Assembly (NCBI RefSeq): GCF_003334385.1 | Contig: NZ_QOWN01000103.1 | Origin: Escherichia coli | GTDB taxonomy: Bacteria; Pseudomonadota; Gammaproteobacteria; Enterobacterales; Enterobacteriaceae | Reading direction: 5' to 3' (one strand) | DNA: 1,987 bases | Shown: one piece after another, positions 1-1,987 of the stretch | Layout: each line of letters opens with the position of its first letter | Numbering within the stretch: the first letter of the stretch is position 1 | Translations under genes and position numbers: made by a program | Notes under the pieces: model-generated | What the model saw: the letters and a program-made list of their open reading frames with translations, nothing else | What the model was told of the DNA's origin: nothing | Database searches by the model: none

Positions 1-471
1 TGGTGGCTGGTCTGCCGGGGGACGATTCATAAGTTCCGCTGTGTGCCGCATCTCACCGGGCGGCGCTTTGAGCACGGGGTGACGGACTGTTACACGCTGT
101 TCCGGGATGCTTATCATCTGGCGGGGATTGAGATGCCGGATTTTCATCGCGGGGATGACTGGTGGCGTCACGGTCAGAATCTCTATCTTGACAATATGGA
201 GGCGACTGGTTTTTACCGTGTCGCACTGACAGAGGCGCAGCCTGGCGACGTGCTGCTGTGCTGCTTTGGTTCATCGGTGCCGAATCATGCCGCCATTTAC
301 TGTGGTGACGGCGAGCTGCTGCACCATATTCCTGAACAACTGAGTAAACGAGAGAGGTATACCGACAAATGGCAGCGACGCACACACTCCCTCTGGCGTC
401 ACCGGGCATGGCGCGCATCTGCCTTTACGGGGATTTGCAACGATTTGGCCGCCGCATCGACCTTCGTGTGA
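1..471 (+). CDS. K: Phage tail tip assembly protein K (gpK-like), C-terminal part only; 5' end lies upstream of the window. The portion present looks like an NlpC/P60-type peptidase domain.
   Basis: Frame 1 is open from base 1 to the TGA at 469-471 (translation begins WWLVCRGTIHKFRCVPHLTGRRFEHGVTDCYTLF... and ends ...NDLAAASTFV). The ORF track's start at 43 is a GTG inside this frame, not the true start. The translation matches my recollection of the lambda gpK C-terminus. A Cys in a D-C-Y context (codon 88-90) and a His in an N-H-A-A-I-Y context (codon 286-288) fit NlpC/P60 catalytic motifs. Lies immediately upstream of I and J, as in lambda. Confidence 0.9.
   Translation, partial: WWLVCRGTIHKFRCVPHLTGRRFEHGVTDCYTLFRDAYHLAGIEMPDFHRGDDWWRHGQNLYLDNMEATGFYRVALTEAQPGDVLLCCFGSSVPNHAAIYCGDGELLHHIPEQLSKRERYTDKWQRRTHSLWRHRAWRASAFTGICNDLAAASTFV
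350..357 (+). promoter_or_regulatory. Possible purine-rich ribosome binding site for I, lying inside the K coding sequence
   Basis: GAGAGAGG at about 350-357, roughly 11 nt upstream of the I ATG at 369. The spacing is slightly long, and initiation may instead depend on coupling to K translation. Confidence 0.3.
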
Positions 472-1040
472 AAACGGGGGCTGAAGCCATCCGCGCACTG
501 GCCACACAGCTCCCGGTGTTTCGTCAGAAACTGAGCGACGGCTGGTATCAGGTACGGATTGCCGGGCGGGACGTCAGCACGTCCGGGTTAACGGCGCAGT
601 TACATGAGACTCTGCCTGATGGCGCTGTGATTCATATTGTTCCCAGAGTCGCCGGGGCCAAGTCAGGTGGCGTATTCCAGATTGTCCTGGGGGCTGCCGC
701 CATTGCCGGATCATTCTTTACCGCCGGAGCCACCCTTGCAGCATGGGGGGCAGCCATTGGGGCCGGTGGTATGACCGGCATCCTGTTTTCTCTCGGTGCC
801 AGTATGGTACTTGGTGGTGTGGCGCAGATGCTGGCACCGAAAGCCAGGACGCCCACGGCAGCAAGTACAGATAACGGCAAACAGAACACCTATTTCTCCT
901 CACTGGATAACATGGTTGCCCAGGGCAATGTTCTGCCCGTTCTGTACGGTGAAATGCGCGTGGGGTCGCGGGTGGTCTCTCAGGAGATCAGCACGGCAGA
1001 CGAAGGGGATGGTGGTCAGGTTGTGGTGATTGGTCGCTGA
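369..1040 (+). CDS. I: Phage tail tip assembly protein I (gpI-like), complete, 223 aa
   Basis: ATG at 369-371, TGA at 1038-1040, 223 codons. Translation MAATHTLPLASPGMARICLYGDLQRFGRRIDLRVKTGAEAIRALATQLP... matches my recollection of lambda gpI in sequence and length. Overlaps the 3' end of K by 103 nt in a different frame, as in lambda. N-terminal ~90 aa is charged/mixed (reported ubiquitin-like fold in gpI), followed by a long Gly/Ala-rich hydrophobic stretch. Confidence 0.95.
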   Translation: MAATHTLPLASPGMARICLYGDLQRFGRRIDLRVKTGAEAIRALATQLPVFRQKLSDGWYQVRIAGRDVSTSGLTAQLHETLPDGAVIHIVPRVAGAKSGGVFQIVLGAAAIAGSFFTAGATLAAWGAAIGAGGMTGILFSLGASMVLGGVAQMLAPKARTPTAASTDNGKQNTYFSSLDNMVAQGNVLPVLYGEMRVGSRVVSQEISTADEGDGGQVVVIGR

Positions 1041-1057
1041 TGCAAAACATTTTATGT

Positions 1058-1086
1058 GAAACCGCCTGCGGGCGGTTTTGTCGTTT
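1058..1086 (+). terminator. Intergenic GC-rich hairpin followed by a T-rich tract; possible intrinsic terminator or mRNA stabilising / processing structure between I and J
   Basis: Perfect inverted repeat AAACCGCC (1059-1066) and GGCGGTTT (1071-1078) with a 4-nt loop TGCG (1067-1070), followed by TTTTGTCGTTT. An A-rich run (TGCAAAACATTTTATGTGAAA) precedes it. The stem is only 8 bp with 5 GC pairs and the T-tract is interrupted, so terminator strength is uncertain. Confidence 0.35.
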
Positions 1087-1088
1087 AT

Positions 1089-1092
1089 GGAG
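1089..1092 (+). promoter_or_regulatory. Shine-Dalgarno ribosome binding site for J
   Basis: GGAG located 8 nt upstream of the J ATG at 1101. Confidence 0.6.
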
Positions 1093-1100
1093 CGTGACGA

Positions 1101-1987
1101 ATGGGTAAAGGCAGCAGTAAGGGGCATACCCCGCGCGAAGCGAAGGACAACCTGAAGTCCACGCAGCTGCTGAGTGTGATCGATGTCATCAGCGAAGGGC
1201 CGATTGAAGGTCCGGTGGATGGATTAAAAAGCGTGCTGCTGAACAGTACGCCGGTGCTGGACAGTGAGGGGAATACCAATATCTCCGGCGTCACGGTGGT
1301 GTTCCGGGCAGGTGAGCAGGAGCAGACGCCGCCGGAGGGCTTTGAATCCTCCGGTTCCGAGACGGTGCTGGGTACGGAAGTGAAATACGACACGCCGATT
1401 ACCCGGACCATCACGTCTGCAAACATCGACCGTCTGCGCTTTACCTTCGGTGTGCAGGCACTGGTGGAAACCACCTCAAAGGGGGACCGGAATCCGTCGG
1501 AAGTCCGCCTGCTGGTTCAGATACAGCGTAACGGTGGCTGGGTGACGGAAAAAGACATCACCATTAAAGGCAAAACCACCTCACAGTATCTGGCATCGGT
1601 GGTGGTGGGTAACCTGCCGCCGCGCCCGTTCAATATCCGGATGCGCAGGATGACGCCGGACAGCACCACAGATCAGCTGCAGAACAAAACGCTCTGGTCG
1701 TCATACACCGAAATCATCGATGTGAAACAGTGCTACCCGAACACGGCACTGGTCGGCGTACAGGTGGATTCGGAGCAGTTCGGCAGCCAGCAGGTGAGCC
1801 GTAATTATCATCTGCGCGGGCGTATTCTGCAGGTGCCGTCGAACTATAACCCGCAGACGCGGCAATACAGCGGTATCTGGGACGGAACGTTTAAGCCAGC
1901 ATACAGCAATAACATGGCCTGGTGTCTGTGGGATATGCTGACCCATCCACGCTACGGCATGGGGAAACGTCTTGGTGCGGCGGATGT
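1101..1987 (+). CDS. J: Phage tip attachment / host specificity protein J (gpJ-like), N-terminal 295 aa only; 3' end lies downstream of the window
   Basis: ATG at 1101-1103, preceded by GGAG at 1089-1092 with an 8-nt spacer. Frame stays open to the window end. Translation MGKGSSKGHTPREAKDNLKSTQLLSVIDVISEGPIEGPVDGLKSVLLNSTPVLD... matches my recollection of the lambda gpJ N-terminus. Position directly after I with a 60-nt spacer matches lambda. Confidence 0.95.
   Translation, partial: MGKGSSKGHTPREAKDNLKSTQLLSVIDVISEGPIEGPVDGLKSVLLNSTPVLDSEGNTNISGVTVVFRAGEQEQTPPEGFESSGSETVLGTEVKYDTPITRTITSANIDRLRFTFGVQALVETTSKGDRNPSEVRLLVQIQRNGGWVTEKDITIKGKTTSQYLASVVVGNLPPRPFNIRMRRMTPDSTTDQLQNKTLWSSYTEIIDVKQCYPNTALVGVQVDSEQFGSQQVSRNYHLRGRILQVPSNYNPQTRQYSGIWDGTFKPAYSNNMAWCLWDMLTHPRYGMGKRLGAAD

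Follow-up and report, generated by a model that had tools for sequence, protein, structure and literature searches.

Position 1101 of this Escherichia coli stretch opens a reading frame that runs to the last base of the sequence, and the locus raises the question of which part of a phage tail gene that frame represents and whether it can tell anything about the receptor of the phage. We analyzed the whole stretch of 1,987 nucleotides, referred to here as the window, and concluded that 1101-1987 almost certainly holds the opening quarter of an ordinary lambda-type J gene, which breaks off where the record stops, and that this hub part is free of receptor-specificity information. The features of the window are as follows.

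1 to 471, plus strand: 3' part of gene K (C40/NlpC-P60 family tail assembly protein), colinear with lambda K
369 to 1040, plus strand: gene I (tail-tip plug/assembly protein, 223 aa; partner of the gpJ N-terminal domains), with the length and position of lambda I
1054 to 1084, plus strand: hairpin in the 60-nt I-J spacer, from RNA folding; stem 1057-1066/1071-1080, loop UGCG
1089 to 1092, plus strand: GGAG, Shine-Dalgarno-like, read from the sequence; 8 nt upstream of the J ATG and at the identical position in lambda
1101 to 1987, plus strand: 5' fragment of J (lambdoid tail-tip/central fibre gene), codons 1-295 plus 2 nt, cut at the record end
1314 to 1745, plus strand: FNIII-A (Ig-like), an insertion in the HDII-insertion hub domain; codons 72-215, with borders taken from PMC10721106 and a match to PF24801

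The J frame starts with an ATG at 1101 and has no stop codon up to 1987. Since the record is only 1987 bases long, J is cut by the record end and not by a stop codon. A phmmer search against the PDB aligned the whole fragment (residues 1-295) with residues 1-295 of lambda gpJ (PDB 8IYK chain J, 1132 aa; E 1.8e-197), and a second lambda J chain, 9e7m_Ja, was matched at E 9.6e-198. The two proteins are identical at 292 of 295 residues, the substitutions being A29V, T55S and M169V. In the NCBIfam profile lambda_TipJ (NF049904), the fragment covers positions 1-295 of 1163 and scores 657.5 bits; the curated cut-off of 1950 bits is out of reach for a partial protein, and the score per residue, which comes from those 295 of 1163 positions only, is at the level expected for a member. 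The Pfam model PF24801 (FNIII-A_GpJ) matched fragment residues 86-207 over model positions 3-125 of 126 (E 8.2e-42). At the nucleotide level, the fragment is 100% identical to the J gene of five complete E. coli genomes. On all features that can be tested in the window, namely its sequence, the FNIII-A domain and the synteny of K, I and J, the fragment belongs to the lambda gpJ family. The original prediction had described it as the N-terminal third or less of J, and about a quarter is more exact, since 295 residues are 26% of the 1132 residues of lambda gpJ and 24-25% of the 1159-1233-aa J proteins of close relatives.

The window contains G+C-rich sequence in which the minus strand also holds two open frames, one of 129 aa at 1085-1474 and one of 81 aa at 1701-1946, so we considered whether the J frame could be a chance open reading frame or the true gene could lie on the other strand. 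The chance of this is negligible. The match to a solved protein, at the E value given above, speaks against it, as does the annotation of J on the same strand in every relative. Among the 33 J codons that differ from lambda, 30 differ synonymously and 3 non-synonymously, and this bias indicates that the plus frame is coding and under purifying selection. We rejected both the chance frame and the minus-strand gene on the strength of the protein match and the synonymous bias in the plus frame.

We then compared the whole window with the lambda genome. The window aligned with lambda NC_001416 14405-16391 without a gap, at 95.0% nucleotide identity overall and 96.3% in J, and the aligned stretch runs from the 3' part of K through the whole of I and the 60-nt spacer into the 5' part of J. 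The gene order K-I-J is the same in lambda and in all relatives examined. K overlaps I by 103 nt, as it does in lambda; K is annotated as a C40 family peptidase in relatives, and its match to the NCBIfam model phage_NlpC_fam was weak. The I protein (gpI) differs from that of lambda at 5 residues. Lambda gpJ (NP_040600; PDB 8IYK, 8IYL, 8K35, 8XCG, 8XCI and 9E7M) is the same protein over residues 1-295 (99.0% identical), in the same place after K and I, and the window differs from lambda J by the three substitutions, all conservative, and 33 nucleotides. The remaining 74% of lambda gpJ, including the LamB-binding domain, falls outside the window.

The I-J spacer has the same 60-nt length in lambda, with 4 nt different and with the hairpin core, the GGAG and the ATG start unchanged. 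The hairpin core, AAACCGCC-UGCG-GGCGGUUU, is followed by a U-rich stretch and lies immediately upstream of the ribosome-binding site of J. The fold of 1038-1103 had an energy of -20.6 kcal/mol (z -2.4 versus shuffles). Lambda has the identical core stem and loop (1057-1080), and within 1054-1084 it departs from the window only at 1083, which belongs to the outer stem. A promoter and terminator scan of the window gave counts at chance level and did not flag the hairpin, and no Rfam family matched any part of the window, the hairpin included, at E up to 1.

The roles of the J domains discussed here are taken from the literature, and the identity, colinearity, domain content, conservation gradient and uncoupling of the N- and C-terminal parts were computed in this analysis. 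In cryo-EM structures, gpJ consists, in order, of hub domains, FNIII-1/2, a shaft that is alpha-helical (AHS), a central straight fibre (CSF) and a C-terminal receptor-binding domain (RBD) (PMC11101478). FNIII-A of lambda gpJ occupies residues 72-215, and in the tail tip the HDII-insertion hub domain is in contact with both gpL and gpI (PMC10721106). LamB is bound by the last 249 residues of J when these are fused to MBP (review PMC3509688, citing Wang et al. 2000 and Berkane et al. 2006), and compensating host-range mutations in J lie in its C-terminal portion (PMC3509688). A deep mutational scanning paper further describes the N-terminal ~980 residues of J as highly conserved and the receptor-contacting C-terminal ~150 as extremely diversified, with phages 2H10 and 2G7b as examples of the diversification (bioRxiv 10.1101/2020.06.25.171868); both phages were among the best matches to the window. 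The rest of the gpJ architecture, namely HDII, HDIII and HDIV with OB, FNIII-1/2, the shaft, the fibre and an Ig-like RBD at the C terminus, falls past window position 1987. In the relatives with an identical gpI, the domains PF13550, PF24421, PF24489, PF09327 and PF12421 were found downstream.

On this basis, residues 1-295 make up the HDII-insertion hub domain with the inserted FNIII-A. With gpL, gpI and gpM, they shape and seal the conical tail tip, and they do not contact the receptor; all receptor-binding parts of J are encoded far downstream. The choice of receptor falls to the receptor-binding domain at the C terminus, which comprises about the last 150-250 residues and which lambdoid phages swap by recombination without regard to the conserved N-terminal part. 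The window is therefore uninformative on receptor specificity. Two claims of the original prediction agree with the published work: that the receptor determinants are C-terminal, in view of the LamB-binding 249 residues (PMC3509688) and the position of the RBD (PMC11101478), and that the N-terminal part builds the tail tip, in view of the place of residues 1-295 in the hub and the contacts of HDII-insertion with gpL and gpI (PMC10721106).

We also considered whether the fragment could act on host range through the docking of side fibres on the gpJ N terminus. In Ur-lambda, the side fibres dock on gpV/gpM and not on gpJ (PMC12617516), so the J fragment does not influence host range indirectly by attaching side fibres, and this candidate was rejected. 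The FNIII-type Ig-like domains of tail tips have been speculated, without proof, to help non-specific adhesion to the cell surface (PMC10721106), and FNIII-A may make a minor, non-specific contribution to adsorption.

The N-terminal hub is shared more widely than among lambda-like phages. T5 pb3, the J-like tips of T1-like and other siphophages and the F-type pyocins (PDB 9L9P, 25VF and 23GD) have a homologous N-terminal hub; window residues 4-293 matched chains of these three entries at E 2e-51 to 5e-40, and tblastn with the fragment gave matches of 32-46% identity in about 1500 phage records. The T5 hub protein pb3 and the related tips are much less identical to the window than lambda gpJ is, and T5 divides the functions of hub, fibre and receptor binding among pb3, pb4 and pb5 (PMC10721106).

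To place the fragment within J as a whole, we aligned 18 full-length J relatives from phage, prophage and metagenome loci that matched the window and calculated identity in 50-residue windows. Over residues 1-295, every pair of the 18 was at least 97.6% identical. Mean pairwise identity was at least 96% in each 50-residue window from residue 1 to 650, then fell to 81% at 751-800 and 57% at 801-850, recovered in part, and was 58% at 1051-1100; the minimum pairwise identity was about 10% in both 801-850 and 1051-1100. The original description of the 295 residues as the conserved structural part of J is borne out by this profile, and the conserved structural block reaches about residue 750, far past the window. 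At 90% identity, the C termini of the 18 relatives fell into 7 classes, and over residues 983-1132 no non-lambda relative was more than 45% identical to lambda.

The two ends of J were also compared with the phage collection. The 295 residues of the window were matched at 95% identity or more by 103 records, and 1733 records covered at least 80% of them. With the last 295 residues of lambda J as the query, 22 records matched at 99% or more, none at 80-99%, and 248 covered 80%. Among relatives with a near-identical N terminus, the lambda-like LamB-binding C terminus was found only in lambda-type records (22 in the phage collection).

Among loci L001 to L031, J varied in two separate zones, one at about residues 750-900 and the other at about 1000-1132, and the stretch in between (900-1000) was better conserved. 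Full-length J proteins of these loci fell into discrete length classes of 1106, 1132, 1159-1160, 1165 and 1233 aa. This layout suggests that the distal half of J contains at least two recombination modules.

If the N-terminal type of J were linked to the receptor-binding type, the C termini of the nearest relatives would predict the receptor, and one C-terminal class is indeed common to L027, L029, L030 and L031, four of the five relatives closest to the window. We nevertheless regard such a linkage as very unlikely. Window positions 780-1987 are base-for-base identical to two complete E. coli chromosomes, CFIAFB20190172 (L028) and UTAK-1 (L029). Their J genes are each identical to the window at 887 of 887 nt and are mutually identical up to J nt 1220, whereas at nt 3151-3450, which code for the C-terminal end, they share only 55-59% of their nucleotides. 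The last ~150 residues of the two proteins are 63% identical and belong to different C-terminal classes; that of CFIAFB20190172 is shared with L020 and is 62-63% identical to the common class over the last ~150 residues. The same 5' end with different C termini is a direct counter-example to a linkage of the two ends of J. The seven C-terminal classes among 18 relatives with N termini at least 97.6% identical, and the mosaic make-up of the window itself, argue in the same direction.

The prophage J proteins WP_044723265.1 (UTAK-1 and 15.03CC; 1159 aa) and WP_463109714.1 (CFIAFB20190172; 1160 aa) are identical to the fragment at all 295 residues, and in 15.03CC the J fragment is matched at 886 of 887 nt. 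The three prophages differ from the window in K (patch 189-306) and in I. Since the two proteins differ from each other in the C-terminal domain of J, neither can replace the missing part. The claim that the window tells nothing about receptor specificity therefore stands, with "nothing" taken to mean a specific receptor. Among the relatives compared, the J 5' sequence is joined to many different receptor-binding ends, and in annotation a lambda-like J fragment must not serve to assign a receptor or host range. This caveat is correct and well known, and it adds nothing new to phage biology.

As judged from its patches of mismatches, the window is a mosaic of lineages, with short exchanged patches typical of lambdoid recombination. 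The mix seen here, a K patch from one lineage and I with J from another, had no verbatim match in the collections searched. The whole window was not found verbatim in complete E. coli genomes (best 98.2%), and the 10 contigs listed of the 23 with an identical 223-aa gpI were 96.1-97.7% identical to it. An exact 107-nt J pattern was found at 14 loci in viral_contigs, none identical over the whole window. An exact 109-nt K pattern gave 0 matches in genome_contigs and 3 loci in metagenome_contigs, about 96-97% identical over the window and none verbatim.

The patches can be located by counting mismatches along the window. In the K patch 189-306, there were 21 mismatches per 100 nt against CFIAFB20190172, 20 against lambda and 0 against the metagenome contigs L032 and L033. 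In the I patch 801-900, where the differences lie at 848-870, there were 0 mismatches against CFIAFB20190172 and 15-17 against L032, L033 and lambda.

We infer that the source J runs on normally past 1987. On the other hand, the source gene may be truly truncated, frameshifted or interrupted downstream, as in a defective prophage, so that the fragment would be the head of a pseudogene. Lambdoid prophages of E. coli are often decayed, and one locus with an identical gpI (GCA_000358475.1, AQAW01000026.1; 756-4446) has J split into open reading frames of 327, 89 and 801 aa in different frames; its first break, after residue 327, would lie about 30 codons beyond the end of the window. Nearest relatives are also damaged elsewhere: L is frameshifted in UTAK-1 (5132-5723), and an IS110-family transposase lies between L and K in CFIAFB20190172 (4428-5447). 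A decayed source gene is nevertheless unlikely. The frame within the window is intact and under purifying selection, and the window stops simply at the last base of its 1987-base record. In all of the five nearest E. coli prophages that were fetched (97.7-98.2% identical over the window), J is intact, at 1159-1160 aa, and lom and stf come after it. That the missing remainder of J carries an undescribed C-terminal receptor-binding class, or a truncation or fusion, is likewise quite improbable.

The place at which the record ends is in keeping with a J gene that is cut by assembly and otherwise normal. Of 5426 complete E. coli genomes, 4491 carry the J 5' sequence, at a median of 3 and a maximum of 14 copies each, and such a multi-copy sequence is a classic repeat that breaks short-read assemblies. 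Ten of the 23 contigs with an identical gpI are shorter than 2 kb, and the window is probably a short contig of this kind.

A 13.9-kb viral contig (IMGVR_UViG_2693429554_000018) starts inside J, and its positions 1-272 are 100% identical to window 1716-1987. The J frame continues for 960 codons in this contig, which is another sign of assembly breaks within the multi-copy J.

Gene I of the window was also inspected. Public records place the start of gene I at three positions, all in one frame. The ATG at 369 gives 223 aa and the 103-nt overlap with K, as in the lambda RefSeq record; the TTG at 435 gives 201 aa, as in phage PhiR42_1; and the GTG at 468, used by PGAP, gives 190 aa and overlaps the K stop codon as GTGA. 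Residues 163-166 of gpI (window 855-866) are TAAS here and RIQT in lambda, which makes four consecutive differences. Residues 159-175 of gpI are the "plug" segment that closes the lumen of the tail tip (PMC11101478), and the change from RIQT to TAAS thus falls within the plug segment. The TAAS version of gpI is also present in the nearest E. coli prophage.
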